A stretch of 64,000 nt of DNA. It comes from a candidate division FCPU426 bacterium. GTDB lineage: Bacteria > Oederibacteriota > Muellerivitia > Muellerivitales > Muellerivitaceae. The position numbers were made by a program, and so were the translations under genes. This document shows positions 33,901-52,354 of the stretch, one piece after another; positions within the stretch are counted from its first letter, which is position 1, and every line of letters starts with the position of its first letter. Under the pieces are notes generated by a model. The model was given only the letters and a program-made list of their open reading frames with translations. It had not been told where the DNA came from and made no database searches. The stretch lies in NCBI GenBank assembly GCA_963771075.1, contig CAVYSE010000005.1, forward strand, positions 1-64,000, given 5' to 3'.

Positions 33901-35243
33901 AAATCCTTTTAGTGGATGACGAGAAGTCCATCCGGGAATTGATGATCACCCTTTTGGCCGAATGGGGGCATGAGGTGAGGACGGCCGCCTCGGTGGGCGA
34001 GGGATTGGAACAGGCGGAGGCCTTCAAACCCGAGCTGGTGCTTTTGGACGTGCACCTTCCGGACGGCACGGGCCTGGAATTCCTGAAAGTCATTACCACC
34101 ACCCAACCCTCCACCTCCATCGTCATGATCACGGCCAATGTGGATATCAAGGTGGCCGTGGAGGCCATCAAAAGGGGCGCGGAGGATTACTTGGCCAAGC
34201 CCCTGGACTTGGACGAGCTGGAACTCCTGATCCAACAAATCGAGGAACGGCGGGGCCTGCGGCGGGATGTGGCAGCCCTGAAAAACCACCACAAGGAACT
34301 TTACCGCAAGGATTACCTCTTTTTATCCGATCCCGCCATGAAAAAGGTTTATGAACAGATCGACCAGGCGGCCCAGCACGCTTCGGTGACGGTCCTGATC
34401 CTGGGGGAAACGGGTACGGGCAAGGAACACGTCGCCAAATTGATCCACGTGCTCTCCGCCCGGACTTCGGCGCCCTTCATGGAACTCCATTGCGGGGCCA
34501 TGCCGGAAAACCTGCTGGAGTCCGAACTTTTTGGCTACGAGCCGGGGGCCTTTACCGATGCCCGCAAGTCCAAACCGGGTTTGTTCGAATTGGCCCATCG
34601 GGGCACCATTTTCCTGGACGAGGTCGGCGAATTGCCCCTGACCGTTCAAACGAAACTCTTAAAGGTATTGGAACAAAAGACATTGCGCCGGTTGGGAGGC
34701 GTCCAGGAGATCAAAATCGACGTAAGGGTAGTGGCCGCCACGAACCGGGACCTGGGCCGGGAGGTGAAGGAAGGCCGTTTCCGGGCCGACCTTTACTACC
34801 GACTGAATGTGGCCAACATCAACCTTCCGCCCTTGCATTCCCGCCCCGAGGATATCAAGGGTTTGGCCCAATTCTTTTACACCGACTTGTCCAATCTCTT
34901 CGGAAAAAAGATGAGGCCCCTGACCCCGGCGGTGATGGACGCATTGGTGGCCTATTCCTGGCCGGGGAACGTGCGCGAATTGAAGAATGTCATGGAAAGG
35001 GCCATCCTCTACTCCAAGGGCCCCGTCCTTACCTTGGATGATCTGCCCCCGGAAGTCTTGCGTCCCCCCGAGTCCAAGGAGGAAGGGGCTCCCGGCCGGT
35101 CGATGAGCAAGGAAGAAGCCGAAAAAGAAAATATCCGGCTTGCGCTGGAGACCTTCGGCGGCCACAAGACCAAAGTGGCCAAACACCTGGGTGTTAGCCG
35201 TACGACACTCCTGGCCAAGATCAAAAAATACCATTTGGGATAG
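33897..35243 (+). CDS. Sigma54-dependent (NtrC/AtoC-family) response regulator
   Basis: REC domain; 'GETGTGKE'; 'GAFTDA'; 'WPGNVREL'; Fis-type HTH. Confidence 0.95.
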   Translation: MKILLVDDEKSIRELMITLLAEWGHEVRTAASVGEGLEQAEAFKPELVLLDVHLPDGTGLEFLKVITTTQPSTSIVMITANVDIKVAVEAIKRGAEDYLAKPLDLDELELLIQQIEERRGLRRDVAALKNHHKELYRKDYLFLSDPAMKKVYEQIDQAAQHASVTVLILGETGTGKEHVAKLIHVLSARTSAPFMELHCGAMPENLLESELFGYEPGAFTDARKSKPGLFELAHRGTIFLDEVGELPLTVQTKLLKVLEQKTLRRLGGVQEIKIDVRVVAATNRDLGREVKEGRFRADLYYRLNVANINLPPLHSRPEDIKGLAQFFYTDLSNLFGKKMRPLTPAVMDALVAYSWPGNVRELKNVMERAILYSKGPVLTLDDLPPEVLRPPESKEEGAPGRSMSKEEAEKENIRLALETFGGHKTKVAKHLGVSRTTLLAKIKKYHLG

Positions 35244-35423: not shown

Positions 35424-36374
35424 ATGTTTCGCAAGGAAATCAAGGTTTTGGATTGCACCATCCGCGACGGTGGATTGATCAATAATTACCAGTTCTCCGA
35501 GAGTTTCGTGAAGGCCGTTTATGCCGCTGTCGCCGACGCGGGAGTGGACATCATCGAGCTGGGAAAGAAATTGGTGGAGAGCGACGAATACCCCCGGTCC
35601 AAATTCGGCCCCTGGAATTATTGCGACGAGGAACTTTTAAAGCGGATCGTTGGAAGTTACAAGGGAAGCTCCCACCCCCAAGTGGCCGTCATGTTCGACA
35701 TCGGGCGCATTGATTTGAAGGGCATGGTCGCTAAAAAAGACAGTCCAGTGGACATGATCCGCACGGCCTGTTACGTGCCCCAGATCGACAAGGCCCTGGA
35801 CGCGGTCAAACGGTCGAAGGACCAGGGTTACCAAACATCGCTCAACATCATGGCGGTTTCTGCGGCTATCGAGACCGAACTCAACGAGGCCTTGGAGGAC
35901 GTGTCCAAAGCGCCCGAGGTGGATTGTCTTTACCTGGTGGACACCTATGGGGCCTTTTATTCCGAGCAGATCACCTACTACCTGGAACTCTATAAAAAAT
36001 ACGTTCCGGTCGCGAAATTGGGCTTCCACGGCCACAACAATATCCAATTGGCCTATGCCAATACCCAGCAGTGCATCATTGAGGGCGTGAACATGCTCGA
36101 CGCCACGATCAATGGGATGGGGCGGGGCGCTGGCAATTGCCCCCTGGAGCTGCTGTTGGGATTTTTAAAGAACCCCAAATTCAATGTTCTGCCCATTTTC
36201 AAGGTCATTCAGGAGCAATTTGTGCCCCTGCGCAAAGAGATGGAGTGGGGTTTCAATGATATTTACTGCATTTCCGGGTTGCTCAACCAGCATCCCCGCG
36301 ACGCGATCAAGTGGCGTGAGGACAAAGGGAAGATGGAGAATTGTTACGACTTTTACTTGGAAAGTTCCAGCTAG
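35424..36374 (+). CDS. DRE-TIM metallolyase (4-hydroxy-2-oxovalerate aldolase-like)
   Basis: 'LDCTIRDGG', 'GFHGHNN', 'GMGRGAGNCPLE'. Confidence 0.82.
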   Translation: MFRKEIKVLDCTIRDGGLINNYQFSESFVKAVYAAVADAGVDIIELGKKLVESDEYPRSKFGPWNYCDEELLKRIVGSYKGSSHPQVAVMFDIGRIDLKGMVAKKDSPVDMIRTACYVPQIDKALDAVKRSKDQGYQTSLNIMAVSAAIETELNEALEDVSKAPEVDCLYLVDTYGAFYSEQITYYLELYKKYVPVAKLGFHGHNNIQLAYANTQQCIIEGVNMLDATINGMGRGAGNCPLELLLGFLKNPKFNVLPIFKVIQEQFVPLRKEMEWGFNDIYCISGLLNQHPRDAIKWREDKGKMENCYDFYLESSS

Positions 36375-36723: not shown

Positions 36724-36738
36724 TGGCACGTCCCTTGC
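36724..36738 (+). promoter_or_regulatory. Sigma54 (-24/-12) promoter
   Basis: TGGCACG-TCCC-TTGC, exact consensus spacing, ~40 bp before the ATG at 36777. Confidence 0.85.
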
Positions 36739-36776: not shown

Positions 36777-37160
36777 ATGAATGCCGTGTCGATCCGTTTG
36801 TATTGTGTTTCCCGCGAATCGGGGAAAAGCATGACCCAATTCACGCGCAGGGAAGCGATCGTCAAACTTTTAAGGGAACTCAACAGTTTGGGGGCCAAAC
36901 TTATCTTTCGAAAGCCCAACTCCCATGAGGATACCCTTAAATTGATCGCCCTTTACCAGGTCTGGAGCCAGGTGGCGGCGGATGTGGCGGGGGAATGGGC
37001 AAAATCGAACTATGAATTGGCCAAACAATTGGTGGCGGACATGAAGGAGAACGATTCGCCCGAATCGGCCTTGAACCGGCTAACCTTGGCCTTGGCCATG
37101 GCGACCCAACACCTGGAACAGGAATTGGAAACCATCGTTCGTGATTTCAAGGACCCCTAA
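36777..37160 (+). CDS. Hypothetical helical protein homologous to the CheA N-terminal extension
   Basis: RBS AGGAGG; 'TLKLIALYQVWSQVAADVAGEWA' aligns with CheA 'TLKLASLYHTWSQVASQVCGGWA'. Confidence 0.8.
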   Translation: MNAVSIRLYCVSRESGKSMTQFTRREAIVKLLRELNSLGAKLIFRKPNSHEDTLKLIALYQVWSQVAADVAGEWAKSNYELAKQLVADMKENDSPESALNRLTLALAMATQHLEQELETIVRDFKDP

Positions 37161-37456
37161 CGCAAACCCATTCATTTGAAACCATTTTGGGTTCGGGAAT
37201 TCGCCCATCGTCGCGGGGTGATAGGTTTTCCACTCGGAAGGCTGGGCAAGCGAATCTTAACCCTGTGGGGCCCCGGGCTTGAACGGGAGAATCCACCAAA
37301 CCGTTCATCTGTGTCTCTGTGGTTAAAGGTGTTTTTGCCACGGTCCTAAAATTTTAGGCGTTCAGAAACTGGACGGGCGTACAGCACCTGAACAATGAAT
37401 TGCCCCGATATTTTAAAAATTCTCTTTTTTAACCATCAAAAAGGCCAAGATGAATT

Positions 37457-37471
37457 TGGCATAAGGTTTGC
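37457..37471 (+). promoter_or_regulatory. Sigma54 (-24/-12) promoter of the chemosensory operon
   Basis: TGGCATA-AGGT-TTGC, ~45 bp before the ATG at 37515. Confidence 0.75.
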
Positions 37472-37514
37472 GTTAGGACTATTCCGCCATTTTAAAAATG
37501 CTCGGGAGAACTCT

Positions 37515-38003
37515 ATGACGCCTTATCCAGTCAAACCCCAGAAGCGGGAAGAACATCCCCCCGCCGAGATGAACGCCTTGATGGAAGCCATGCGTTACGT
37601 ATTGGAAACCTGGTCCTACCTACCTTCCGGGCATATTGGACAGCCGGTGGAAGGGCCGGCCAAGCTGGGCATGGAAAGGTCCGTCCGAATTACCGGCCGG
37701 GCCAACGCTTTTCTCAACCTTCGCACCCTTCCCGAACTGGGTTCAATTCTTTACCAATATGCCCGCGGGGAAGAAGGAGGCCAGGAAGGGGCGGAGGACG
37801 CCTTTAACGAGTTCGTGAACATCTATTGCGGGCACCTGATGACCTATCTTTGGGGCAAAGACCGGGCCCAATTCAATCCCTACCTGCCTGTCCCAAGCAC
37901 CCCGAAGGACTGGCCCTCCGGGCCGCCTTCCGCGGCCTGTGTCTTTATTACGGAGGACATTCCACTGGAGGTCCGTTTGTGGATCGAACGGGAAACGGCT
38001 TGA
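37515..38003 (+). CDS. CheX/CheC-like phosphatase
   Basis: 'EDAFNEFVNIYCGHL' fits the D-x3-E-x2-N motif; first gene of the operon. Confidence 0.65.
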   Translation: MTPYPVKPQKREEHPPAEMNALMEAMRYVLETWSYLPSGHIGQPVEGPAKLGMERSVRITGRANAFLNLRTLPELGSILYQYARGEEGGQEGAEDAFNEFVNIYCGHLMTYLWGKDRAQFNPYLPVPSTPKDWPSGPPSAACVFITEDIPLEVRLWIERETA

Positions 38004-38004
38004 A

Positions 38005-40020
38005 ATGAATCGAAACGCCCACCGCGAAGCGCAAATCAAGCTCGAAAAAGAGCTTTCCCACCTGGGTGAGAAGTTGATGGCGTCGAAAGGCGCCACGGTG
38101 GAGGAAACCTTGAAATTGGCCTCCCTTTACCATACCTGGAGTCAGGTGGCCTCGCAGGTTTGCGGGGGCTGGGCGCACGAGAACCAGGTCATGTCCCAGA
38201 TGATCGTAAAAGGGCTGGAGGCGGGCCGCCCGGTGACGGCGGTTTTGGAACGTCTTTCCCAGGCCATGACCGAGGCGTCCCAAAATTTGGAGATGGAAAT
38301 CGCCGGGATCGTAATGGCGGCTGAGAATCAACCGTCCCTAGACCCGGCGGATGCCGTGGGAAGTGAAGACTTCACCATCGGGGAAGATAACCTGGACGGG
38401 TTCAATGATTTCGTGACGGAAGCGCCCGAACACCTGGAAGCCATCGAGCGCAATCTCCTCTCCCTTTCCCAAGAGGGTAAGGGCGATGTTTTAGCGGTGT
38501 TTCGCGCCTTTCATACCCTCAAGGGCATTTCGGGTTTTATGGGGTTGACCCAGCTCTCCGCCTTGAGCCACAAGGCGGAGGCGATGCTGGAACCTTTCAA
38601 GCAAGGCCAGGGCCGCCCCACCGAGAAACAATTGGATTGGCTTCTTCGGGTTTGCGACCAGGTTCGGGAACAGGTGAAGGCGATCCACCAAGGCATTCCT
38701 TCCCGTCGTTTTAAGGTGTTCCCCTTTGAGGGGCTTTTTCAATCCGGGCAAGGCCCATCGGCGTCCAGTCCGTCGGCCGAAACCCCGTCCAACGGCGACC
38801 GTGCCGGCGATAACCATTGGGAGGATGCCCGATCGGGCGACGCGTCGATACGGATCAATGTGGAAAAAATGGACATGCTCTTGGAGGCGGTGGGGGAACT
38901 GGCCATTTGCCAGAGCCAGGTTACCGAGGGCATCCTCGATTCCGGCGTTTTGGGCCATTTGGCGGGCGAAGCTTCCCGTTTATCCAAAATTTCCCGCCTG
39001 CTGCAGGAAATCATCCTCTCCCTTCGGATGGTGCCCGTTCACCCGCTGTTCCAGCGCATGAGCCGTTTGGGACGGGACCTTTCCAAAAAAACCGGAAAAC
39101 TCCTGCGTGTTGAGGTCGAGGGCGGGGAAACGGAATTGGACAAGCGCATGGTGGAGGAACTGGTCGATCCCCTGGTCCACCTGATCCGCAACGCCGTGGA
39201 CCACGGTATCGAGGACGCCCAGACGAGGTCGAAAGCGGGAAAACCCGCCGAGGCCCGGGTGGCCTTATGGGCGGGCCACCAGGGCGGGGATTTCATCCTG
39301 AAACTGGAAGACGACGGAGCGGGGTTGAATTTCGGGAAGATCACGGGCAAAGCCCGCCAGGCGGGTTACCTGGGCCCCAACGAGACGCCGACCCAGGACC
39401 AGCTCATTGAGTTCCTGTTCCGCCCGGGCTTTTCAACCGCCGATCAGGTGACCGAATATTCGGGCCGTGGGGTGGGCCTGGACGTGGTTCGCCGAAAGAT
39501 ACAGACCCTCCGGGGCACGATTGTCCTGGAGACCGAACCGGGTAAGGGGACCACTTTCAAACTACGCATTCCCCTTACTTTGGCCCTCATGGAGGCGGTT
39601 TTGGTTCGCGTCGGCAAGGAACGTTTTGTCCTGCCGGCGGCCCAGGTGATGGGTTTCCTGGCCTTGGACGAGACCGAGGAGCACTCCGTGGGCCGGGGGG
39701 CCAAGTGGCTCCACTCCCGGCAGGGACAGTGGCCCCTCATCGACCTGGAAAAAACATTCGGGGACCGGGCGGCCGCCCCAAGGCGGGGCCTGTCCCGCCA
39801 ATCGGTTGTGGTGCAGGTGGAGGCGGAAGGTCAAAGGGCCTGTCTGGTGGTGGATGAGGTGCTGGGCAAGCGCCAAGTGGTTTTGAAGGAATTGGGGGAA
39901 GCGCTTCATGCAATGCGGGGCGTGTTGGGGGGGGCCATCTTGGGCGATGGGAAGGTCGGCCTGGTTTTGGATATGGAATTTCTGATCCGGCCGATGTCGG
40001 GTCCGATTTCAATTAATTGA
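38005..40020 (+). CDS. cheA: Chemotaxis histidine kinase with an extra N-terminal domain
   Basis: Hpt 'FRAFHTLKG', 'IRINVEKMD.L...VGEL', 'HLIRNAVDHGIE', 'SGRGVGLDVV', CheW domain. Confidence 0.95.
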   Translation: MNRNAHREAQIKLEKELSHLGEKLMASKGATVEETLKLASLYHTWSQVASQVCGGWAHENQVMSQMIVKGLEAGRPVTAVLERLSQAMTEASQNLEMEIAGIVMAAENQPSLDPADAVGSEDFTIGEDNLDGFNDFVTEAPEHLEAIERNLLSLSQEGKGDVLAVFRAFHTLKGISGFMGLTQLSALSHKAEAMLEPFKQGQGRPTEKQLDWLLRVCDQVREQVKAIHQGIPSRRFKVFPFEGLFQSGQGPSASSPSAETPSNGDRAGDNHWEDARSGDASIRINVEKMDMLLEAVGELAICQSQVTEGILDSGVLGHLAGEASRLSKISRLLQEIILSLRMVPVHPLFQRMSRLGRDLSKKTGKLLRVEVEGGETELDKRMVEELVDPLVHLIRNAVDHGIEDAQTRSKAGKPAEARVALWAGHQGGDFILKLEDDGAGLNFGKITGKARQAGYLGPNETPTQDQLIEFLFRPGFSTADQVTEYSGRGVGLDVVRRKIQTLRGTIVLETEPGKGTTFKLRIPLTLALMEAVLVRVGKERFVLPAAQVMGFLALDETEEHSVGRGAKWLHSRQGQWPLIDLEKTFGDRAAAPRRGLSRQSVVVQVEAEGQRACLVVDEVLGKRQVVLKELGEALHAMRGVLGGAILGDGKVGLVLDMEFLIRPMSGPISIN

Positions 40021-40036
40021 AGGGGAGCGTTTAAAA

Positions 40037-40513
40037 ATGGAAAAGACGACGCCAATCATTCAGGGCCGGTACATCTTTTTCGCCATCGCGGGACAAGTCT
40101 ACGGCGTGGGAATACACCATGTCCGGGAGATCGTGGACTCGAAACTTTTGGAGGTGGTGGGGGACTCGTCCCTTTCGATCCGGGGTTATTTGGACCTGCG
40201 CGGAAGGAACATTCCGGTGGTGGATTTGAGGAACAAGTTGGGGATGGAAGATACCCCGATTCATCCTTGGAGCTCCGTTTTAACCATGGTGGCCAAGGGA
40301 TGGGACGGCCCCCTTTGGATGGGGCTGTTGGTGGATGGGGTGGAGCAAGTGGTTCAGGTCGCTTCCACGGACGTGGAGGCGGTTCCGGACATGGAGGAGG
40401 ACCCGAGAGGGCCGTGGCTGATGGGTTTCACCCGGCATCAAGACCGGACGGTTTTGCTGTTGGACCTGGATAAGGTGGCGAAAGAGGAAGTGGAATCGAT
40501 TCAACTCGCATAG
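40037..40513 (+). CDS. cheW: CheW adaptor
   Basis: 'VREIV', 'GYLDLRGRNIPVVDLR', 'GLLVDGV'. Confidence 0.9.
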   Translation: MEKTTPIIQGRYIFFAIAGQVYGVGIHHVREIVDSKLLEVVGDSSLSIRGYLDLRGRNIPVVDLRNKLGMEDTPIHPWSSVLTMVAKGWDGPLWMGLLVDGVEQVVQVASTDVEAVPDMEEDPRGPWLMGFTRHQDRTVLLLDLDKVAKEEVESIQLA

Positions 40514-40526
40514 GGAGGAATGAAAG

Positions 40527-42749
40527 ATGAAAAGTTTAAATTCGAGGGAGTTGTCCATGAAAAATATCGGAATGATGAGTCTGATCCTGGCCGTGGGGAT
40601 GGCGACCCCCTTGCGGGCACAATTACTGGAAGCCCAAGCGGCTCCCATGCCGCAGAAAACGGCGGTCACCTCGGCGGTGACTCCCGAGCCCGCCGGGACG
40701 GCCCAGGACCTAAGTTCGGAGAGCCTTCAGCAGTTGATGGGGCTGAATGTGGTGGTCTCCTCCTCCTCCAAGAAGGCGGAATCCCTGAGGGACGCTACCT
40801 CGGCCATCTATGTCATCACTCAGGAAGATATCCAGAGAAGCGGGGCCCAGACCGTGCCCGACCTGCTGGCCATGGTGCCAGGCGTGCAGGTCGCCCGCCA
40901 ATCGGCCAACGAATGGGCCATCAGCGCCCGCGGGTTCAACGGCCAATACAACAACAAAATGCTGGTCCTGATCGACGGCCGAAGCGTTTATGACCCGGTC
41001 ATGGGAGGCGTCAACTGGAACCAGCAGGACGTGATGATGGAGGATATCGACCACATCGAAGTCATCCGCGGGCCCGGGGGAACCCTCTGGGGCTCCAACG
41101 CGGTCAACGGCGTGGTGAACATCATCACCAAGGACTCGAAAGTGACCCAGGGTCTTTACCTGGGACTCGGGGCGGGTTCGCCCCTCTATCCCGCGGGAGT
41201 GAGCGGGACCACTTCCCTCAACGGAACGGGCGCCTTCCGCTATGGCGGAAAAATGGCCGACGACCTCTATTACCGCATCTACGGCCAGGTCAATAACGAG
41301 AACCCCTTCGCTAACGCCGAGGAGGCCTATTATTACGAGACCGGTCTGGGGACCGCCTGGAACGACGCCTGGTACGATTACCGGGCCGGGTTGCGGACCG
41401 ATTGGCATGCCGACCAGGACCAGTTCACGCTGGAAGCGGAGGCCCAGAGCGGCCATTTCAACTACGCCCGACTGACCAACAACGTGACCTCTGTCTTCAA
41501 CCCCGAAACCTTTGTCCAGGCCAACGACCTGAATACGGACATCGACCAGAACGCACATCTGCTGGGCCGCTGGACGAGGGATTTCAAGGATGACTCCCAG
41601 ATCCAGGTCTTGGCCTATTACGACTACAACAACCTGACCACGGCCAACGACAACCGAATCACCAACGTGGGACAGGCGGACCTGGAATTCCAACACCGCT
41701 TCCACTTGGGGGGAGTCAACGAGATCACATGGGGAGGCAGCTACCGGAACGTCTCGGACCAGTTTTACAACCCCATCAACTTCGATTACAGCCCGGAAAA
41801 CCAGAACCTGAACATCTATGCCGGTTTCGTCCAAGAAAAGTTGACGATCGAGGAAGCCCGGCTCTATCTGACGGGCGGGGTCAAGCTGGAGAACAACCCC
41901 TACACGGGAAGCGAGTGGCAGCCTTCGGGACGCCTTCTCTGGACGCCGGATGATACCAACAGCGTCTGGACGGCGGTCTCCCGCTCGGTCCGGATCCCGA
42001 CCCAATATTCGGAATCCGCATACACCTATCTTTACGGAATCCCGGCGAACGCCTATGGGCCCGGCACACCGGCGCAGAACACCTATCTGGGAGTGATTCC
42101 CAATTCCACGCTCGTGGCGGAAACACTGGTTTCCTATGAACTGGGCTACCGGACCAACCCCACCCAGGAAACCTCGGTGGATCTGGCCGGTTTTTACAAC
42201 CACTACGACAACCTGGTCTCGTTCCAGAACTACACGGGCCAGCCCGTGAATACCCCCAACGGAGGCGTCATGGACCCTTCCTGGCTCCAGGTTCTGCAGA
42301 TGCAGAACACGGGCGTGGGGAACATCTGGGGAGTGGAACTGGCGGGGCAGTGGAATCCCCTGGCCACCCTGAAGGTGAATGTGTCCTATACCTACCAGGG
42401 CTACGACCAGAACATGATCAACTCCTCCAACGCCGAACTGGGCGCGCCGCCGCCGCACAACCTGGCGAACGCGCGGGTCTATTTCGATCCCATCCAGGGC
42501 CTGGAACTCAACACCAGCTTCTACTACACCGACGCCACCTTCATGTATGACCCCCAATCGGGCAATACCATCACCTCCGACTACGTTCAATGGAACCTGG
42601 GAGCCAGCGTGAAGCCCGCGGATAACCTGGAAATTTCCCTCTGGGGCCTGGACCTGGAAGGGGCCCATGTGGAGACCCTGCAGTCGGCCTTCATTTCGCC
42701 CGCCGAAGTGGTACCGAGCGTTTACGGCAAAGTCGAGCTGCGCTACTAA
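40527..42749 (+). CDS. TonB-dependent outer-membrane receptor (start may be 40557)
   Basis: Signal peptide; plug 'YVITQEDIQRSG', 'IEVIRGPGGTLWGSNAVNGVVNIITK'; beta-barrel; C-terminal aromatic residue. Confidence 0.92.
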   Translation: MKSLNSRELSMKNIGMMSLILAVGMATPLRAQLLEAQAAPMPQKTAVTSAVTPEPAGTAQDLSSESLQQLMGLNVVVSSSSKKAESLRDATSAIYVITQEDIQRSGAQTVPDLLAMVPGVQVARQSANEWAISARGFNGQYNNKMLVLIDGRSVYDPVMGGVNWNQQDVMMEDIDHIEVIRGPGGTLWGSNAVNGVVNIITKDSKVTQGLYLGLGAGSPLYPAGVSGTTSLNGTGAFRYGGKMADDLYYRIYGQVNNENPFANAEEAYYYETGLGTAWNDAWYDYRAGLRTDWHADQDQFTLEAEAQSGHFNYARLTNNVTSVFNPETFVQANDLNTDIDQNAHLLGRWTRDFKDDSQIQVLAYYDYNNLTTANDNRITNVGQADLEFQHRFHLGGVNEITWGGSYRNVSDQFYNPINFDYSPENQNLNIYAGFVQEKLTIEEARLYLTGGVKLENNPYTGSEWQPSGRLLWTPDDTNSVWTAVSRSVRIPTQYSESAYTYLYGIPANAYGPGTPAQNTYLGVIPNSTLVAETLVSYELGYRTNPTQETSVDLAGFYNHYDNLVSFQNYTGQPVNTPNGGVMDPSWLQVLQMQNTGVGNIWGVELAGQWNPLATLKVNVSYTYQGYDQNMINSSNAELGAPPPHNLANARVYFDPIQGLELNTSFYYTDATFMYDPQSGNTITSDYVQWNLGASVKPADNLEISLWGLDLEGAHVETLQSAFISPAEVVPSVYGKVELRY

Positions 42750-42769
42750 GCGCGGGAAAGGAAAAAACC

Positions 42770-43336
42770 ATGAAAAAACGATCGATTGCTTTTCTCTCCC
42801 TTTCTCTGGGTTTGCTTTTCCTTGCCGCCGGCTCAGGGCCGGCGGCGGGGGAAGTGACCGAGTACGGGGTGAAAGCCGCCTATCTCTACAACTTCAGCCA
42901 GTTCGTGCGCTGGCCCGCGGCGGCTTTCTCCGCCGATGACTCCAATTTCGTGATCGGCGTAGTGGGGGAGGACCCCTTCGGCGCCACCTTGGACGCGGTG
43001 GTGAGCGGGAAAACCGTCGGTGGGCATCCCATGACAGTCAAACGCTTCGGGGCCTTCACCCCGGCCAAGGCGGGAGCCCTGGCGAAATGCCAGATCCTCT
43101 TCATCGCCTATTCGGAAAAAGACCAGGTCAGGGACATTTTGGCGGCCTTGGCGGGGAGCAAGGCGCTCACCGTTTCGGAGATCGAGAATTTTCCGGTCAA
43201 GGGCGGGGCCGTTCAATTTGACCAGGTCGGCCAAAAGATATCGCTGGTCTTGAATGAATCCGCGGCCAAAAAAGCGGGCCTTTCGGTCAGCGCCCAGCTC
43301 CTGCAGGTCGCCAAGCTGTTCAAATCGGAGGAGTAA
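42770..43336 (+). CDS. YfiR/DUF4154-family periplasmic regulator
   Basis: 'EYGVKAAYLYNFSQFVRWP', 'IGVVGEDPFG', 'CQILFI', 'SAQLLQVA'. Confidence 0.9.
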   Translation: MKKRSIAFLSLSLGLLFLAAGSGPAAGEVTEYGVKAAYLYNFSQFVRWPAAAFSADDSNFVIGVVGEDPFGATLDAVVSGKTVGGHPMTVKRFGAFTPAKAGALAKCQILFIAYSEKDQVRDILAALAGSKALTVSEIENFPVKGGAVQFDQVGQKISLVLNESAAKKAGLSVSAQLLQVAKLFKSEE

Positions 43337-43339
43337 ACC

Positions 43340-44872
43340 ATGCCGCGACTCAACTTCAAGAAAATGCCACTTCGGGACAAGATCATCTGGATCACGGGAA
43401 TTTCCACCACGATCTCCCTGATTTTAGCCTGCTTGGTCCTGGCCGTGAGCGAGAGGGTTTCTTATCCCAAGATTATGGCGGCGAACCTGTCCGACCTTGC
43501 CCAGGTGGTGGGGGATAACAGCACGGCGGCCCTGGCCTTCAACGATTCCAAGACCGCCCAAGGCATGCTGGATACCATGAAGGGGAACCCGCATATCGTC
43601 AACGCCACTCTTTTCGACGCCAAGGGACAGATTTTCGCGTCCTATAGTACGGATAAGAACCCCGCGGTGGTCACGGTCAAACCGGAAGGGTATGAGTTTT
43701 CGGGCGGGACCCTCAAACTTTTTCACGCCATCCAGATGGGCGGGTTGAATGAGGGAACCCTTTACCTTGAATCGGACCTGAAGGAAATGAATTCCCGCAT
43801 GGCGGCCTATTTGATGGTCACCCTGCTGGTTCTCATCCTTTCCATATTCGTCTCCTTCCTGACCTCCGCCCGCCTCCAGGCCCAGATCTCGGACCCCTTG
43901 AAAAACATCATCGGGAATTTGAACGACAGCGCCGAGCAGATGGCGTCCAGTTCGAATCAGATATCCACCGCCAGCCAGCAGCTGGCCGAGGGGGCGAGCG
44001 AATCCGCCAGCAGCCTGGAGGAAACCAGCTCTTCCCTGGAGGAAATGGCCTCCATGACCCGGCAAAACGCCGAGAACGCGCAAAGGGCGCGGGCCCTGAC
44101 CGAAGAGTCGCAGGAATCCGTCCTGAAGGGGAACCAATGCGTGGCGGAGACCCTGGCCGCCATGAAGGAGATGAATGAGAGCGCGGAAAAGGTCTCCAAG
44201 ATCCTCAAGACCATCGAGGAAATCGCCTTCCAGACCAATCTTTTGGCCTTGAACGCCGCGGTTGAGGCGGCCCGGGCCGGGGAACAGGGAAGGGGATTCG
44301 CGGTAGTGGCCGAGGAGGTTCGCAACCTGGCCCAACGCAGTTCGGCGGCCGCCAAGGACACGGCGGCTTTGATCGAGGAAAACGCCAAACGGGCCTCCCA
44401 AGGTTTGAAGGTCAGCGAAGAGGCCGGGAAGTCACTCGCCGAGATCGTGGACCGCTCCAAAAAAGTTTCCCACCTCATCCAGGAGATCGCCGGGGCCAGC
44501 GAGGAGCAATCCAAGGGCATATCGGAAGTGAACGGGGCCGTGACCCAGCTGGACACGATCACGCAACGCAACAGCGCCAACGCGGAGGAAATGTCCTCTT
44601 CCAGCGAAGAAATGTCGGCCCAGTCGAAGGTCCTGCGGGAAATGATCGGTTCCCTGGTGATGGTTCTGGAAGGCGACGGGAGGAAAAAAGAAGTTGTCTT
44701 GGCGCGGGATGAAACGATGGACCCGCGGGGGCAGGCGATCCATCACATCGCTCCCGGCAAGACAAAATCCGTCAAACGGTCCTTGTTGGTCCCCATCGGG
44801 GGGATGAAAACGGCCCAGGCCGCCGCCGGAAAGATCATCCCGCTCAGCGACGAAGAAATGCGTAATTTTTAA
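43340..44872 (+). CDS. Methyl-accepting chemotaxis protein with CHASE8 (YfiN-like) periplasmic domain
   Basis: Two TMs around '[11 protein letters not shown]...L......I..A.LFD..G..FASY'; hairpin '[34 protein letters not shown]'. Confidence 0.9.
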
Positions 44873-44882
44873 GGAGCCTGGG

Positions 44883-45410
44883 ATGGAAAAGAGCGAAACG
44901 AAATTCGAGGGCAAATACCTTACCTTCCGGGTGGGTAAGGAGGAATACGGGGTGCAGATCCTCAAGGTTCGGGAGATCGTAGGCCTTTTGGAAATCACCG
45001 AGGTACCCATGACCACCACCCATATCCGGGGCGTCATCAACCTGCGGGGCAAGATCATACCGGTGGCCGATATGCGCCACAAACTGGGGCTTCCCCCGGA
45101 GGTTTCGACCCGGGAGAACTGCATCGTGATCGTCCTGGCCAAAGGTGCCAAGGGAGAATCCCTGGTGGGTCTGCTGGTGGACTCGGTCAACGAGGTTTTC
45201 AACCTGGCCGAAGCCGCCCTGGAGCCGATTCCCCAGTTGGGGGACGGGCGGGCCCTGGACTTCGTGCAGGGGTTGGCCCGCGTCAAGGGCCGCTTGGTGA
45301 TCTTATTGGACGTGGATGAGGTGGTGAGCGCGGAAGAGCTGGATGGGTTGGATCTGTTGAAAAAAGCATCCCTGCCGAAAGACGGGGAAGCGGTGGCGGC
45401 CAAGGTTTAA
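44883..45410 (+). CDS. cheW: CheW adaptor
   Basis: 'YLTF..G.EEYG..I..VREI', 'GVINLRGKIIPV'. Confidence 0.93.
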   Translation: MEKSETKFEGKYLTFRVGKEEYGVQILKVREIVGLLEITEVPMTTTHIRGVINLRGKIIPVADMRHKLGLPPEVSTRENCIVIVLAKGAKGESLVGLLVDSVNEVFNLAEAALEPIPQLGDGRALDFVQGLARVKGRLVILLDVDEVVSAEELDGLDLLKKASLPKDGEAVAAKV

Positions 45411-45431
45411 GGGCAAAGCGGTCGGGGAGGC

Positions 45432-46280
45432 GTGCCGATGGTGGAAATTAAGATAACCGAAATGGGGATCGGGGAGTTTAACCAGCTTTCCCGCCTGGTT
45501 TACGCCCAAAGCGGTATCCACCTGGAGGAACATAAGCTGGAATTGCTCCAGGCCCGCTTGCGCAAAAGGCTCAGGATCCTTTCCCTCGGCTCCTTCAAGG
45601 AATACTACCGGCATGTGGTCAGCGACGAGTCGGGGGAGGAACTGAGGCACATGTTGGACCATGTCAGTACCCATAAGACCGAATTCTTCCGGGAAAACAA
45701 GCATTTCATCCTCCTGTCCCAACGCCTTCTGCCGGAACTGGTGGCGGAGACGGCCCGTCGGATGGATAAAACCCTTCGGATCTGGTGCGCGGCCTGCTCC
45801 TCGGGGGAGGAGGCCTACAGCCTGGCCATGTGCGCCCTTGAATCTGCGGCGGGCGCGGGGGTGAAGGTGAAGATCCTGGCCACCGACCTATCCAACCGGG
45901 TCATCCAAAGTGGCCAGGAAGGTTTGTATGGGCTGGAGAAGGTCCAGCCTATCCCGCCGGCCCTGCTTCAGAAATATTTCATTTCCCGCAAAAGGGACGG
46001 GGAAAAGTTTTATGAGGTCGGGGAAGGCCTGCGCCAGGCGGTCCATTTCCGCCGCTTCAACCTGAACGGGGGGGACTTTTCTTTCCGGAATACCTTTGAC
46101 GTTATTTTTTGCCGCAACGTGATGATTTACTTCGACCGCGAAACCCAGGAGGACCTGGTGAAGCGGCTATCGGGGGCGCTCCGGAAAGAGGGTTACCTCT
46201 TCACGGGTCTTTCGGAGAGCCTGTTGGCCATCCGGCATAAGCTGATTTCGGTCGCCTCGTCGGTATACCGGAAACCCTAG
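45432..46280 (+). CDS. cheR: Chemotaxis methyltransferase
   Basis: 'T.FFRE', 'IWCAACSSGEEAYS', 'IFCRNVMIYFD'. Confidence 0.95.
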   Translation: MPMVEIKITEMGIGEFNQLSRLVYAQSGIHLEEHKLELLQARLRKRLRILSLGSFKEYYRHVVSDESGEELRHMLDHVSTHKTEFFRENKHFILLSQRLLPELVAETARRMDKTLRIWCAACSSGEEAYSLAMCALESAAGAGVKVKILATDLSNRVIQSGQEGLYGLEKVQPIPPALLQKYFISRKRDGEKFYEVGEGLRQAVHFRRFNLNGGDFSFRNTFDVIFCRNVMIYFDRETQEDLVKRLSGALRKEGYLFTGLSESLLAIRHKLISVASSVYRKP

Positions 46281-46352
46281 CAGGCTGCGGTTGGAAAATT
46301 CGATGAATACAAGGCTCGCCGGTGATAAAACGCCCCGGGGGAGGAAAAGAAC

Positions 46353-46856
46353 TTGAACGCGGGAAAAACGGATAAAAAAAACATCGTGATAGGGGTGGGG
46401 GACTATTACGTCAGCTCGGACCCGTCCGATTTGCTCGTGACCTATGCCCTGGGTTCCTGCGTGGGAGTGACGGCCTATGACGCCAGGGCGCGCGTGGGGG
46501 GCATCCTGCATTTCAAGCTTCCCCACTCGCAGATCAATCCGGGAATGGCCTCGACCCATCCCGCCATGTTCGGGGACACGGGCCTGGAGGCCTTCCTGAT
46601 GGGGATGTTCCAGGCGGGGGCCACGAAGCCGAATTTGGACATCAAACTGGCGGGCGGCGCCAAGGGACTGGCCAGCGCCGGGGATTTTTTCAATATCGGG
46701 GAACGTAATCTTTTGATCGCCCAGCGCGTGTTTTGGATGAACGGCTTGATCGTTTCGCGCAAGGACACGGGCGGCAACGATTACCGGACGGTCAAGCTGG
46801 AAATGGCGACAGGCCGGGTCACGATCAAGGACCCTCACAACACTTACGAACTTTAA
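46353..46856 (+). CDS. cheD: Chemoreceptor glutamine deamidase
   Basis: 'LGSCVGV', 'GILHFKLP', 'KLAGGA', 'IGERN', 'DTGG'. Confidence 0.93.
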   Translation: MNAGKTDKKNIVIGVGDYYVSSDPSDLLVTYALGSCVGVTAYDARARVGGILHFKLPHSQINPGMASTHPAMFGDTGLEAFLMGMFQAGATKPNLDIKLAGGAKGLASAGDFFNIGERNLLIAQRVFWMNGLIVSRKDTGGNDYRTVKLEMATGRVTIKDPHNTYEL

Positions 46857-46873
46857 TTCAAGAGGAGGATGAC

Positions 46874-47269
46874 ATGGCGTTCAATTTTTTAGTGGTGGAT
46901 GACTCGGCCACCAGCCGGGGAATCATCAAGAAAACCCTGAAACTGACCCGGCTTCCCTTGGGGGATATTTGGGAAGCGGCCAACGGCCGCGAGGGGTTGG
47001 TGCAAATGCGCGCCAATTGGGTGGACCTGGTCCTGGCGGACTTGAACATGCCCGACATGACAGGGCAGGAAATGATCGCCGAGATGCAGAAGGACCCCCT
47101 CCTGGCCAAGCTTCAGGTGGTGGTGGTGAGTTCGGAGGGGAGCCAGTCGGTCCTGGAAGCCCTCTATCAACAGGGGGTACGCCAAGTGGTGCGGAAACCC
47201 TTTGAGGCCAGCCTGCTGAGGGACGTGATCGAAAAGGCGCTCGGGATACAGGCCGAAGCGAATGGATAA
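46874..47269 (+). CDS. cheY: CheY-like single-domain response regulator
   Basis: RBS GAGGAGG; 'LVVDDS', 'ADLNMPDMTG', 'KPF'. Confidence 0.85.
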   Translation: MAFNFLVVDDSATSRGIIKKTLKLTRLPLGDIWEAANGREGLVQMRANWVDLVLADLNMPDMTGQEMIAEMQKDPLLAKLQVVVVSSEGSQSVLEALYQQGVRQVVRKPFEASLLRDVIEKALGIQAEANG

Positions 47270-48341
47270 GAAGCGGGTGGAAAGCGGAGATATGGAAAAG
47301 GTCAAGGTGCTCATCGTGGACGACTCGACTCTGGTTCGTAAGGCCTTGACGGGCGTTTTCGAGGCGGAGGGTTTGCGGGTGGTGGGGGAGGCCTCGGACC
47401 CTTTTGAGGCCAGGGACCAGATCATCAGGCACCGTCCCGACATCCTGACCCTGGACCTGGAAATGCCCCGGATGGACGGCCTGACCTTCCTGGAGCGGCT
47501 CATGACCCACCAACCCATGCCGGTCGTGGTTTTTTCCAGCTTCACGGAGAAAAACAGCGCTTTGGCCCTGAAGGCCCTGGACCTGGGCGCCGTGGAGGTG
47601 CTGGAAAAACCCATGAAGGTGAATTTTGCCCCAGCCATGGTCAACTTGGTGAGGGTTTTAAAGGAAAGCGCCCATGCCAAACCCCGGCGGAGGGTTACCC
47701 CGGTGGCGCCGGAGGCGGTAAAAAAGATACCCGGGAATCCCAGCCGTTTAGTCACCGCGATTGGCGCTTCCACGGGCGGGACGGACGCGATTTCCACGAT
47801 CTTGCGGGGGCTGCCCGCCCAACATCCCGGACTGGTGATCGTGCAGCATATGCCCCCCTTCTTCACGCGGACCTTCGCCGAGCGGTTGGACCGGGAAAGC
47901 GCGATGCGGGTGAGGGAGGCGGTGGAAGGGGACGTCATCCGGGACGGACTGGCGCTGGTCGCGCCCGGGGGAAAGCATCTGTTGGTGGAAGGGTTACCCG
48001 GCCGGTTCCAAGTGTCCTGTCCTGATGGCCCGCCGGTGAACCATTGCCGGCCGAGCGTGGATGTGTTGTTTCAATCCGTGGCACGCGCAGCCGGGCGCCG
48101 CGCGGTGGGGGTGATCCTGACCGGTATGGGACAGGATGGGGCGAACGGGCTTATGGCGATGAAAAACAAGGGAGCCGTCACGCTCTCCCAGGACGAGGCC
48201 TCTTGCGTGGTGTTTGGAATGCCCAAAGAGGCGGTAGCCCGTGGGGCCGTGGACGAGGTGGTGTCGTTGAGGGATTTGGCCAATATCCTTAAATCGAAAG
48301 CCGAGGGTATTTTGGCGTACAGGGAAGGGAGCGAGTCATGA
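47262..48341 (+). CDS. cheB: Chemotaxis methylesterase
   Basis: REC domain; 'GASTGG', 'QHMP', 'RPSVD', 'LTGMG.DG'. Confidence 0.95.
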   Translation: MDKKRVESGDMEKVKVLIVDDSTLVRKALTGVFEAEGLRVVGEASDPFEARDQIIRHRPDILTLDLEMPRMDGLTFLERLMTHQPMPVVVFSSFTEKNSALALKALDLGAVEVLEKPMKVNFAPAMVNLVRVLKESAHAKPRRRVTPVAPEAVKKIPGNPSRLVTAIGASTGGTDAISTILRGLPAQHPGLVIVQHMPPFFTRTFAERLDRESAMRVREAVEGDVIRDGLALVAPGGKHLLVEGLPGRFQVSCPDGPPVNHCRPSVDVLFQSVARAAGRRAVGVILTGMGQDGANGLMAMKNKGAVTLSQDEASCVVFGMPKEAVARGAVDEVVSLRDLANILKSKAEGILAYREGSES

Positions 48342-49135
48342 CAAAAAACCAGAAAAAAACCATTCTGTTGGCGGACGCGAACGCCACGGCGCGCAAGCTT
48401 CTGGCAGTCCGGATCCAATACATGGAATACGCGACCGTCGAGGCGGGCGATGTGAAAGAGATGGACCAATTGATCTCCGACCAGGCCTTTGACCTGGCGA
48501 TCGTCGACTCAAAACTGGCCGGGCCGGAGGGCGACGCGATCCTTCAAAAGCTCCAATTCAAAAAAACCCCTGTTTTCTTGGTCACGGACCGGTTTCCCCA
48601 GGGAGGGGACGTGGAGGGACAGTTTCCCGTGAAGGCGGTGTTCCACCGCAGTCAGCGGACGGAAATGCTTGCCAAGGTGGAGGCGCATTTCAACGGGCTG
48701 GAAGAACAAAAGCCATCGCCCAAGCCAAAAGATATGCAGATCTTGCTGATCGAGGATTCTCCCACGATCCGGGGTTATCTCAAGCGCATTCTCGTGAAGC
48801 ACTTTCCGGGTTCGACGGTCCGCGAAGCGGAAGATGGAAGGCAGGCCATGACGGAAATGTCCAGCAAAAGGGTGGATATTATCGTCACGGATCTGCAGAT
48901 GCCGGGCATGGACGGCCAGACCTTCCTCAAGATCCTGCACCGGAATCCCATTTTGAAGAATAAGCCGGTGCTGGTCTTATCCGGGTCCTTCACCCCGCAG
49001 CTGCGGGAGGAACTGAAAGCCTATCCCACGGTCAAAACACTGGCCAAGCCATCTTCCGAGGAGGAGATCGCCTCCACCCTCAAGGATTTGATCGCCTTGA
49101 CGGATAACATGCCCCGCCTAGTCGCAGGGGAATAA
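48338..49135 (+). CDS. Tandem receiver-domain protein (first REC atypical)
   Basis: 'ILLADAN..AIVDSKL' then 'ILLIEDS..IVTDLQMPGMDG..KP'. Confidence 0.85.
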   Translation: MTKNQKKTILLADANATARKLLAVRIQYMEYATVEAGDVKEMDQLISDQAFDLAIVDSKLAGPEGDAILQKLQFKKTPVFLVTDRFPQGGDVEGQFPVKAVFHRSQRTEMLAKVEAHFNGLEEQKPSPKPKDMQILLIEDSPTIRGYLKRILVKHFPGSTVREAEDGRQAMTEMSSKRVDIIVTDLQMPGMDGQTFLKILHRNPILKNKPVLVLSGSFTPQLREELKAYPTVKTLAKPSSEEEIASTLKDLIALTDNMPRLVAGE

Positions 49136-49139
49136 AACC

Positions 49140-49490
49140 ATGGCACGAAACATGGACCCAATGAAGGCTTTTTACCTGGACCTGGAACAGGACCTGCATC
49201 TTCTCATTCTGCACTATTCCATGTGCGAGGGGGCTACCGACCCGGAAGTGACCGACTGGGCCCGATTTTTCGTCCGGTGGGCCGAGAAGGCGACCAAGCA
49301 CAGCGGACCCTGGAGCTGGAAATTACTGGAATCGGCGCAGAATATCGTGAAGGAGTTGGAAAAATCAAAAGACGGACGGAAGGGATATGATTCACTGGGT
49401 CAGGCGATGGCGCAGGCCTCCAACAAGTTGAACGCGGAGATCAAAACCTTCTTGTTGAAGGGAAATTCCCTCCTGGACATGATGAAATAG
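49140..49490 (+). CDS. Hypothetical helical protein, distant homologue of the CheA N-terminal extension
   Basis: 'QNIVKELE..LGQAMAQASNKLNAEI' vs CheA 'QMIVKGLE..LSQAMTEASQNLEMEI'; two conserved Trp. Confidence 0.75.
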   Translation: MARNMDPMKAFYLDLEQDLHLLILHYSMCEGATDPEVTDWARFFVRWAEKATKHSGPWSWKLLESAQNIVKELEKSKDGRKGYDSLGQAMAQASNKLNAEIKTFLLKGNSLLDMMK

Positions 49491-49495
49491 CCGGA

Positions 49496-49882
49496 TCAGG
49501 TTAAGTGGAAGAGCTTTTTTGCCTTGGGCACCGTCTCGCACATCAGACAGGGACCGCGGGAACATTGGGGACTGCGACCGCTCTCCAATAATTGAATCCG
49601 ATGATCCCATTGGTTGATCCGGTAAACATGGGGGCCACAGCTGATCAGCAGGTCTTCCGGGACGGCGAATTTGAGGAAATATTCGCTTTTGGAGAAGAGG
49701 TAGACGTTCCGGAAGGTCTGGGCCAGGTTCACCACGTTGCATTGGGTGGGGTCGATATCGATGAAATAGAAACTGCGCCCAAAGGGTTTGTCAGTGGGCA
49801 TCCAATAGGCAGGGGGGATTGGGTTCTTGCCCTTGGAAATGGTCTCGAAAACTCCTGCGGTGGCGTATTGAAACAAGTACAT
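49496..49882 (-). CDS. Hypothetical protein, possible HYD1-type ADP-ribosyltransferase fold
   Basis: RBS AAGGAG; 'LFQYAT', 'FGRSFYFIDIDP', 'EYFLKFAV', 'PHVYRI'. Confidence 0.45.
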   Translation of the reverse strand: MYLFQYATAGVFETISKGKNPIPPAYWMPTDKPFGRSFYFIDIDPTQCNVVNLAQTFRNVYLFSKSEYFLKFAVPEDLLISCGPHVYRINQWDHRIQLLESGRSPQCSRGPCLMCETVPKAKKLFHLT

Positions 49883-50481: not shown

Positions 50482-52354
50482 GTGCCTCGTCGAAAACCTC
50501 CCCATCCTAAATATGGCGCCTCGCCCGAGAAGAAGATCAGCGTTCTTCATTCCATCGTGACCATCGCCTTCGCGGCTATCTTTTGCAAGCTGTTTTACCT
50601 TCAGATCCTTAACTATCCGACTTATCGATCCCTATCGGACTCCAACAGCCTCCGGTTGATCTCCGAAAAGGCGCCCCGGGGCATCATCACCGACCGAAAC
50701 GGCGAGATCCTCGCCACCAACATTCCCACCTACTCCCTCTTCTTGGTGCCCGCGGACATCAAAAGTTATGAAAATACCCTTGTCCTCTTGAGCCAGATCC
50801 TGGGAGAGCCCCTCCAGGACTTGGAAATCCTCATCCAAAGCCGCCGTCGAACCCGTAGGTTCGAGCCGATTCGCCTGGAGTCCCACCTGGACGATTCCCT
50901 GATCGCCAAGATCTCGGAGAACCTGGTGCGCCTCCCAGGGATATATATCCAAATGGAGCCTGAAAGGTATTACCCCCATGGCAACCTGGCTTCCCACCTT
51001 TTAGGCTATATCGGCGAGATCAGCGAGGGCGACCTGGCCCGAATGCGGGAGTCGGGATACCAGGTGGGGGATTGGGTGGGTAAAAAGGGGGTTGAAAGAA
51101 CCTACGACAAGATTCTGCGGGGCCAAAACGGCGGGGTGGAAGTGGAGGTGGATGCCTCGGGCATCCAACGGCGCACCCTGGACTACCTCAAACCCATCCA
51201 GGGCCAGACGCTCATGCTGACCATCGACTGGAAGATCCAGAAGCTGGCCGAGGATTTAATGGGGGACCAGGTCGGTTCGATCATCGTGAACAACCCCAAA
51301 ACGGGCGATATCCTGGCCATGGTGAGCAAACCCAATTTCGATCCAAACGACTTTGTCAGCGGCATTTCCTTCAAGGATTGGAACCACCTCTTGCAGGACA
51401 AGAACCGCCCCCTGGAAAACCGCGCCATCCAGGGCCAGTACCCGCCGGGTTCCATATTCAAGCTCATTACCGCTTTGGCGGCCCTGGAGGACGGCGTCGC
51501 CGACTTCGACAAGGTGTTCCTTTGCCGGGGGATCTTCTGGTACAAGACCTGGCCTTACCGCTGTTGGCGCACCTCGGGCCACGGCTGGATGAACCTGAAA
51601 AACGCCATTATCGAATCCTGCGATATTTTCTTTTATCAGCTTGGGTTATTGGTCAAGGTCGATAAGATTTACAAGGTGGCCCGGTCCCTTGGGCTTGGAA
51701 ACAAGACGGGCATCGATCTGGACTCGGAGGTACAGGGCCTGGTGCCCAACCCCCGGTGGAAGGAAAGCACCCAGCACATGCCCTGGTTCCCGGGGAATAC
51801 CATCCAGATGAGCATCGGCCAGGGATACCTGCTCACCACCCCCCTCCAGATGCTGGACGTGACTTCCGGCCTGGCTATGAACGGAAAAATCTATCAGCCC
51901 CACCTGATTTTCCGGGTGGTGGACCTGAAGACAGGACGGTCGATCTATGAAAAGCAGCCCGAAGTATTGCAGGAAGCGGATCTGAACCCCAAATTCCTGG
52001 ATTTCATCAAGGCCACCATGCAGGAGGTGGTGAGTTCGGACCGGGGAACGGGCAAGAAGGCCCGGTTGAAAGGGAGTCAACGTGGCGGGGAAGACGGGAA
52101 CCTCGGAAAACCCCCATGGGGACAATCACGCTTGGTTTACCTCCTACGCGCCGGCGGAAGACCCGCAGGTGGCGGACATCGTGCTGGTGGAGAACGGCGG
52201 GGAAGGCGGCGTGGTGGCGGCCCCCATCGCGAAACGCCTGATGGAGCAGGCCCTCGGGATGGAGGTGACGCCCTGGGAAAATCCTGTCGCTACCCCGGGT
52301 GTCTCCTCGGGTCCCCAGCCCGCCCCGACGGTGGTCATGGGGGTAGCGCCATGA
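50482..52354 (+). CDS. mrdA: Penicillin-binding protein 2 (one +1 frameshift near 52070)
   Basis: 'APRGIITDRNG', SxxK 'PGSIFK', 'SCD'; 'AGKTGT' lies in the shifted frame (52082..52354). Confidence 0.93.

Follow-up and report, generated by a model that had tools for sequence, protein, structure and literature searches.

A probable pseudo-HPt domain family found at the N terminus of CheA and as free genes in FCPU426 bacteria

A chemosensory (che) gene cluster in a candidate division FCPU426 bacterium raises the question of what role is played by a short, unannotated domain that is fused to the N terminus of the kinase CheA and is also encoded by separate small genes nearby. The cluster lies in a 64,000-nucleotide window (positions 1 to 64,000 of contig CAVYSE010000005.1, assembly GCA_963771075.1) in which the domain, of approximately 105 residues, occurs three times on the forward strand: free copy A (positions 36777 to 37160, with the domain at about 36843 to 37139 and the ATG at 36777 preceded by GGAGG), copy N at the start of CheA (38005 to 38328 of the gene at 38005 to 40020), and free copy C (49140 to 49490), which starts 4 nucleotides (nt) past a gene coding for a double-receiver protein. 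The copies belong to a family that is real, conserved, and unannotated, and is very likely a pseudo-HPt variant, i.e., a histidine phosphotransfer (HPt)-like domain that lacks the phospho-accepting His. In the text below, G000 is the genome containing the window and C-numbers are its contigs; other G-numbers are related genomes, and L-numbers are gathered loci.

Distribution of the domain family

The initial annotation reported three related segments at these positions, and their translations read as it quoted them. All three pairs align significantly, with local BLOSUM62 scores of 189 for copy A and the CheA N terminus (z = 30; 42% identity over 97 residues), 98 for the CheA N terminus and copy C (z = 16), and 70 for copies A and C (z = 7.9), each above 2,000 of 2,000 shuffles. 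The proposed W-x8-G-x-W signature is present in all three copies; among 72 distinct copies (see below) the first Trp is found in 71, the Gly in 43, and the second Trp in 58. The count of three is correct for the window, but the genome holds six copies by tblastn and hidden Markov model (HMM) searches: the CheA fusion and five free copies. The additional three are on contig C3 (G000:C3:216476, C3:215989, and C3:127298). The other two CheAs of G000 lack the domain.

A profile of 57 rows has matches in 22 of the 30 other genomes that belong to the same taxonomic family and in 1 of 68 genomes from other families of the phylum, that match being on a 3-kb contig. The second case outside the family, a diverged copy on a CheA of G039, was found only by hand, and the HMM thus misses some copies. 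Among 1.84 billion representative sequences there are 69 matches at E ≤ 0.001; six are short stretches of long, unrelated proteins, and the others are free proteins or fragments (66 to 218 amino acids [aa]) or CheA N termini. Loci were gathered for most, not all, of the matches, giving a working set of 72 distinct copies, of which 32 are fused to CheA and 40 are free; L042, a frameshifted CheA start, was dropped, leaving 39 free copies.

No Pfam or NCBIfam model fits the family. The Pfam Hpt model (PF01627) matches none of the three window copies, and with a cutoff of E ≤ 0.1 it is assigned to none of the 57 members in a listing that covers 25 of 28 families; the Pfam scan covered 32 of the 69 representative matches. 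A single-sequence search with copy A found only itself, and the ESM Atlas had no match of ≥0.8 to copy C and no usable match to copy N. All 10 matches listed from a plasmid tblastn search begin past the domain, a scan of genome contigs with copy C confirmed 0 loci, and a sequencing-run search listed no RNA holder.

Loss of the phosphorylatable histidine and architecture of CheA

Among the three window copies, a His at the position likened by the initial annotation to the HPt phosphorylation site is indeed found only in CheA, with Gln in copy A and Val in copy C. Across the 72 copies, the phospho-His-equivalent column contains His just once, in the window's fused copy (His43), and Glu is the commonest residue; even the closest orthologue lacks it. 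The H-x-x-K-G motif is absent, with T, A, L, or S at position +3 and mostly E, S, or Q at +4, and the window's fused copy has Ser and Gln where HPt has Lys and Gly. The domain is very likely a dead pseudo-HPt and not a phosphocarrier. The occurrence of His in a single copy rules out a functional second phospho-His, and the His mutant that had been proposed for autophosphorylation assays is therefore unlikely to matter. In the clade containing copy C, helix A has a near-invariant His of its own (H25), in many members followed by a Cys at position +4; a structural role, metal binding, and service as a relocated phospho-acceptor are all conceivable for H25.

The domain is always the N-terminal leader in this CheA subclass. 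As originally described, the window CheA retains a canonical Hpt (P1) behind the domain (PF01627, residues 135 to 222), containing FHTLKG with His170; P1, P3, P4, and P5 all score above the Pfam cutoffs, and the N, G1, and G2 boxes are present. There is no match to P2 in this CheA, and the P1-P3 gap is only about 45 residues. The possibility that the domain is itself P2-like was rejected, as it is predicted to be all-helical and lies ahead of P1, not alpha/beta and between P1 and P3. Among the 32 fused proteins, 20 have a canonical P1, nine have a degenerate P1 (five of them without the His), and three have no P1; in these three CheAs the domain runs straight into P3 and there is no G2 match. 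That the domain is kept despite the decay or loss of P1 argues for a role independent of phosphotransfer and of propping up P1.

CheA-like proteins without a P1 or G2 match include those at L033:6073-9759 and L079:4437-6233, and two occur in tandem in G006. The P1-less CheA-like genes are followed by cheW, a chemoreceptor gene, and a PAS kinase gene, or by a PAS kinase gene directly.

Predicted fold and probable relationship to HPt domains

AlphaFold2 predicts four helices for both the fused copy (mean predicted local distance difference test [pLDDT] score of 94) and copy C (mean pLDDT of 84), forming an up-down bundle of the HPt kind, although unrelated bundles score similarly. In a comparison with 48,161 chains, the best natural match to the fused copy is the P1 domain of Thermotoga maritima CheA (PDB 1tqg; Z of 12.2, root mean square deviation of 2.3 Å, 100 residues aligned), and six further HPt chains score at Z of 10.1 to 11.1. 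The predicted fold is compatible with HPt but is not proof of it.

When the domain profile is aligned directly with the lineage's own P1 domains, His43 falls exactly on the phospho-His of P1. A stronger connection is provided by a set of related CheAs, encoded in operons with cheD, cheY, cheX-like, and cheB genes, that have an unannotated, His-less ~85-residue N-terminal domain ahead of P1; some of these have two or three true Hpts. The domain (72 rows) matches this bridge (15 rows) with P = 75% and E = 2.5e-5 over 88 columns, a link found again on repeat, and the bridge matches HPt (177 rows) with P = 88% and E = 3e-6 over 90 columns in the same register. Neither link is reached by any of 60 block shuffles, all nine of nine control profiles from other domains of the same loci score ≤2.6%, and removal of the two most HPt-like bridge rows leaves the links at 73% and 68%. 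The predicted four-helix fold and the profile links support the helical pseudo-Hpt of the initial annotation, in the register it guessed, with the exception of the His, which is not a conserved feature. The domain probably shares HPt (P1) ancestry.

Several observations weigh against this conclusion. The direct match to P1 is weak (P = 9%, E = 0.004) and is reached by 3, 5, and 21 of 100 block shuffles; against a wider HPt set P is 12%. Pairwise alignments of each copy with the window's own P1 are also not significant (z of −0.8 to 1.3). The 15 bridge rows were chosen by position, and with only the eight rows from the same phylum the links fall to 24% and 23%. PDB sequence searches with the domain profile and with the bridge profile found no HPt, and Foldseek gave nothing at E ≤ 0.001. 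In the structure comparison, for which the tool treats Z values under about 13 as unspecific for bundles, one designed binder (13.1) ranks above 1tqg for the fused copy and BRIL-containing chains tie with it; for copy C, 1tqg is 13th (Z of 10.3), behind alpha-catenin, BRIL-containing, FAT, and designed bundles (11.6).

The ~85-residue His-less domain is found at L093, L094, L096, L097, and L101 to L104 (also P0106 to P0108, P0181, and P0183 to P0185), and its Pfam results, in a listing of 25 of 29 families, do not include Hpt.

Origins, conservation, and promoter motifs of the free copies

In a quick tree of 104 columns with many weak forks and with L042 left out, copy A nests with the window's CheA-fused copy and copy C falls in an 18-member clade of free copies, a pattern that suggests that free copies arose several times from fused ones. 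A single origin was considered and rejected, as it conflicts with at least 4 changes on the tree, with a borderline P of 0.035 in the approximately unbiased (AU) test. The nonsynonymous rate (dN) is lower than the synonymous rate (dS) in all 10 pairs tested, a sign of purifying selection, and six of these are pairs of the pseudo-HPt domain; the one CheX-like pair and the one receiver pair tested that have lost their active-site motifs (see below) are among those with dN < dS. For copy A and its G001 relative, dN is 0.55 and dS is 1.2; copy C and its G001 orthologue are 70% identical, with synonymous sites saturated.

Sigma-54 (−24/−12) promoter motifs are present within up to 1,200 nt upstream of 24 of 55 copies, compared with a background of 0.7%. 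A motif scan of the window identifies two, versus 0.18 expected (two are seen in 3 of 100 shuffles): one at 36724 to 36738, 5′ of copy A, and one at 37457 to 37471, 5′ of the cheX-like gene and the che operon, both on the forward strand. Upstream are forward-strand genes for a multi-PAS histidine kinase (30709 to 33900; Pfam PAS, HisKA, and HATPase_c) and an NtrC-like sigma-54 activator (33897 to 35243; Pfam REC, Sigma54_activat, and HTH_8). This pair is a recurring neighbor that precedes many loci of the family, and the NtrC-like protein is the likely driver of both downstream promoter motifs. G000 has an rpoN gene; two sigma-54 genes are located at G000:C17:141769-142245 and 162655-163132, the second being split across frames near its end.

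Gene neighborhoods and candidate partners

The explanation that we favor, tentatively, is that the domain is a nonphosphorylatable, receiver-docking pseudo-HPt and that the free copies titrate its partner. The predicted four-helix module, likely HPt (P1) derived and without a conserved His, would act as a docking surface for a receiver. The fused domain would hold a receiver near P1 of a CheA that has no detectable P2, and the candidates in the window are the double-receiver protein (48338 to 49135, forward strand), whose first REC is degenerate and second REC canonical, and CheY (46874 to 47269, forward strand). Free copies, many of them behind sigma-54 motifs beside the PAS kinase/NtrC pair, would bind partners of the same kind and pull them off the kinase, damping the pathway as with plant pseudo-HPts. 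P1 alone is described in PMC2817712 as binding its receiver through helices A and B, with no need for P2.

Of the 39 free copies, 20 have a receiver-containing gene next to them and 13 have a cheX-like gene there (six have both); three adjoin a PAS kinase gene, and nine have none of these within the gathered flank, which is short at some loci. A recurring cheA-less module comprises PAS kinase, NtrC-like protein, sigma-54 motif, cheX-like gene, free domain, and receiver (L002, L037, L039, L048, and L049), and the second REC of the window's double-receiver protein is of the type retained in cheA-less modules. The Glu-Asp acidic pair is missing in eight receivers beside free copies and kept in 18 others, one of which is in such a module. 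The window's cheX-like gene (37515 to 38003, forward strand), a CheX/CheC-like protein with a weak Pfam CheX match (E = 0.032, below the cutoff), has an intact E-x-x-N catalytic motif (EFVN). This motif is intact in all 21 cheX-like genes that precede a His-intact CheA, in none of 10 directly before a free copy, and in two of seven others. The cases in both sets share ancestry, and the counts overstate their independence; a Fisher P of 2e-8 for loss of ExxN was not used, as kin are not independent. A broader and more speculative proposal, which we regard as doubtful, is that bacteria possess stand-alone pseudo-HPt regulators, which in this lineage form the core of a pseudoenzyme chemosensory branch that signals by binding, not phosphotransfer, and feeds back on sigma-54 transcription. 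Its parts would be His-less HPts, ExxN-less CheX-like proteins, receivers that have no acidic pocket, and CheA pseudokinases with the pseudo-HPt in place of P1.

Some of the gene neighborhoods run counter to receiver docking. Nineteen of the 39 free copies have no adjacent receiver gene, and in three degenerate-CheA operons a cheX-like gene is present and no receiver gene is close by; an arrangement of genes may also simply be inherited, without bearing on binding. A complex prediction pairing copy C with the double-receiver protein's second REC (score 0.00, mark 0.32) speaks neither for nor against it.

The adjacency of cheX-like genes fits a different, less likely arrangement, in which the domain docks the CheX-like phosphatase on CheA and hence on the array, and free copies with dead CheX-like proteins are competing pairs. 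All 20 canonical fused CheAs have a cheX-like gene immediately upstream, and such a gene is also found beside a third of the free copies; the split in ExxN retention and the purifying selection on the dead pair tested are in keeping with this. E. coli CheA-short, which localizes CheZ to the array, is described in PMC2673030 as binding it. However, relatives of the CheX-like protein are also encoded in genomes and at loci that lack the domain (L082, L088, L089, and L091), the 10 free cases fall in few clades and are not independent, and no cheX-like gene adjoins the members of copy C's 18-copy clade. At L082:8559-11081 (G000:C11), a CheX-like gene without an ExxN match is followed by a PAS kinase gene, with no domain or cheA nearby; L088:9470-10479 and L089:7488-8504, from two genomes lacking the domain, combine a sigma-54 motif with a cheX-like gene and cheW, without an intervening cheA, and are possible operon remnants.

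The initial annotation had suggested that free copies dock on, titrate, or inhibit CheA, and a version of this in which they inhibit autophosphorylation, as a P4 pseudosubstrate or by pairing with the fused copy, is improbable. With its predicted P1-like shape, the domain could be accommodated by the P4 site, copy A is close to the fused copy in both sequence and tree position, and the domain occupies the place of P1 in three CheA-like proteins. Nonetheless, the domain is kept on G2-less CheA-like proteins, where blocking autophosphorylation has no use, several free-copy modules have no cheA in the gathered locus (L001, L002, L037, L039, L047, L048, and L049), and free copies are mostly beside receiver or cheX-like genes.

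It is a little less probable still that the domain is an output link to the neighboring PAS kinase, through its dimerization and histidine phosphotransfer (DHp) or catalytic domain, such that arrays and free copies tune sigma-54 transcription. A PAS kinase gene, often with an NtrC-like gene, flanks many loci, directly follows three free copies, and closes several degenerate-CheA operons (L033, L045, L046, L051, and L079), and such a link would loosely resemble the action of Myxococcus Che3 on CrdS/CrdA, a precedent for a CheA acting on an NtrC-like system (PMC3147164). The pair may, however, do no more than drive transcription from the sigma-54 promoters, no PAS kinase is seen at L056, L077, and L078 (degenerate CheA with several kb of flank), and the reported target of Che3 is the regulator CrdA, which would fit receiver binding. 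The least probable alternative, an unrelated bundle or structural relic that spaces or stabilizes CheA, with free copies being leftovers of deleted operons, draws on the unspecific fold match, the resemblance of several modules to truncated che operons (cheX-like, domain, and receiver), and an internal stop in one free copy (G004), but accords poorly with the persistence of free copies across genera with dN < dS, the conserved residues peculiar to the 18-copy free clade, and the sigma-54 motifs belonging to some copies.

Organization of the che cluster and flanking genes

Behind cheA, the operon continues on the forward strand with cheW, a TonB-dependent receptor gene, a YfiR-like gene, a CHASE8 chemoreceptor gene, cheW, cheR, cheD, cheY, and cheB (40037 to 48341). 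The TonB-dependent receptor, YfiR-like protein, and CHASE8 chemoreceptor (40527 to 44872) are encoded within the che operon, and this trio is also found in related operons and in the C28 cheA cluster of G000, which suggests a YfiBNR-type periplasmic input into the chemoreceptor. G000 also encodes FliM (G000:C7:15935-16501) and, on C20, another CheA whose P1 and P3 are separated by an extra region, and the window's che cluster therefore need not control flagella.

Between the NtrC-like gene and copy A is an HMGL-like gene (35424 to 36374; aldolase/synthase fold) that is absent from that spot in the related loci examined. A 128-aa open reading frame (ORF) without a family match (49499 to 49882, reverse strand) is convergent on copy C. 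Farther downstream, positions 50482 to 53457 form one 991-aa ORF, with a KTG-motif tail in another frame (52082 to 52354); it appears to join what we take to be a penicillin-binding-protein-2-like gene to a rodA-like gene, and is likely a frameshift or assembly error.

Relationship to known systems and significance

The domain resembles HPt and CheA P1 domains (PF01627; PDB 1tqg, 1i5n, and 3kyj) in having a predicted bundle of similar size and a register that fits helices A to D and the phospho-His, but departs from them in lacking the His and the following Lys and Gly, in its two conserved Trp residues, and in being invisible to the Pfam model. The statement in the initial annotation that no such component had been described is too strong, since His-less HPt-like domains beside an active Hpt are known inside Pseudomonas aeruginosa ChpA and Cereibacter sphaeroides CheA3, where their role is called undetermined by the authors of PMC10782961; a related His-less N-terminal domain also occurs in the wider CheA group discussed above. 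What appears to be new are the free copies and the pseudoenzyme modules. Relative to ChpA and CheA3 as presented there, the domain is here a single N-terminal copy before P1 in a CheA without a receiver or P2, it outlasts the loss of P1, and it exists as free genes. In bipartite CheAs (same source), too, the kinase core and an HPt-type domain come from different genes, but there the free Hpt is the missing active P1, whereas here CheA has its P1 and the free copies are His-less. The F4-class multi-Hpt CheAs of Desulfovibrionales likewise have extra HPts around the active site (Hpt, Hpt, and Hpt in one survey row), but these are recognizable by sequence, and none of the proteins matched the profile of this domain.

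Plant pseudo-HPts (AHP6 and PHPs) are a parallel to the free copies, being stand-alone, His-less HPts with a damping role; damping is the mechanism associated with AHP6 in plants. The plant PHPs are still recognizable as HPts, whereas the family described here belongs to bacteria, has diverged much further, and is associated with a chemosensory cluster. Full-text searches of a corpus that most subscription papers fall outside turned up neither a stand-alone bacterial His-less HPt nor a description of the family, and full-text matches to "pseudo-HPt" with "bacteria" and "receiver domain" all concern plants by title. A term search of the survey supplements of PMC10782961 gave no match for FCPU426; PMC12471899 was also considered.

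The family is narrow in distribution and its ancestry is only moderately supported, but it is a marker for one CheA subclass, and the His-less N-terminal CheA domain of the wider group deserves a family model of its own. Because nature provides the domain as small free genes (five in G000) and in a CheA-fused form, together with candidate partners, the question of its role is directly testable in vitro. That it survives on P1-less CheAs and is paired with dead CheX-like and receiver proteins suggests chemosensory signaling by binding alone.

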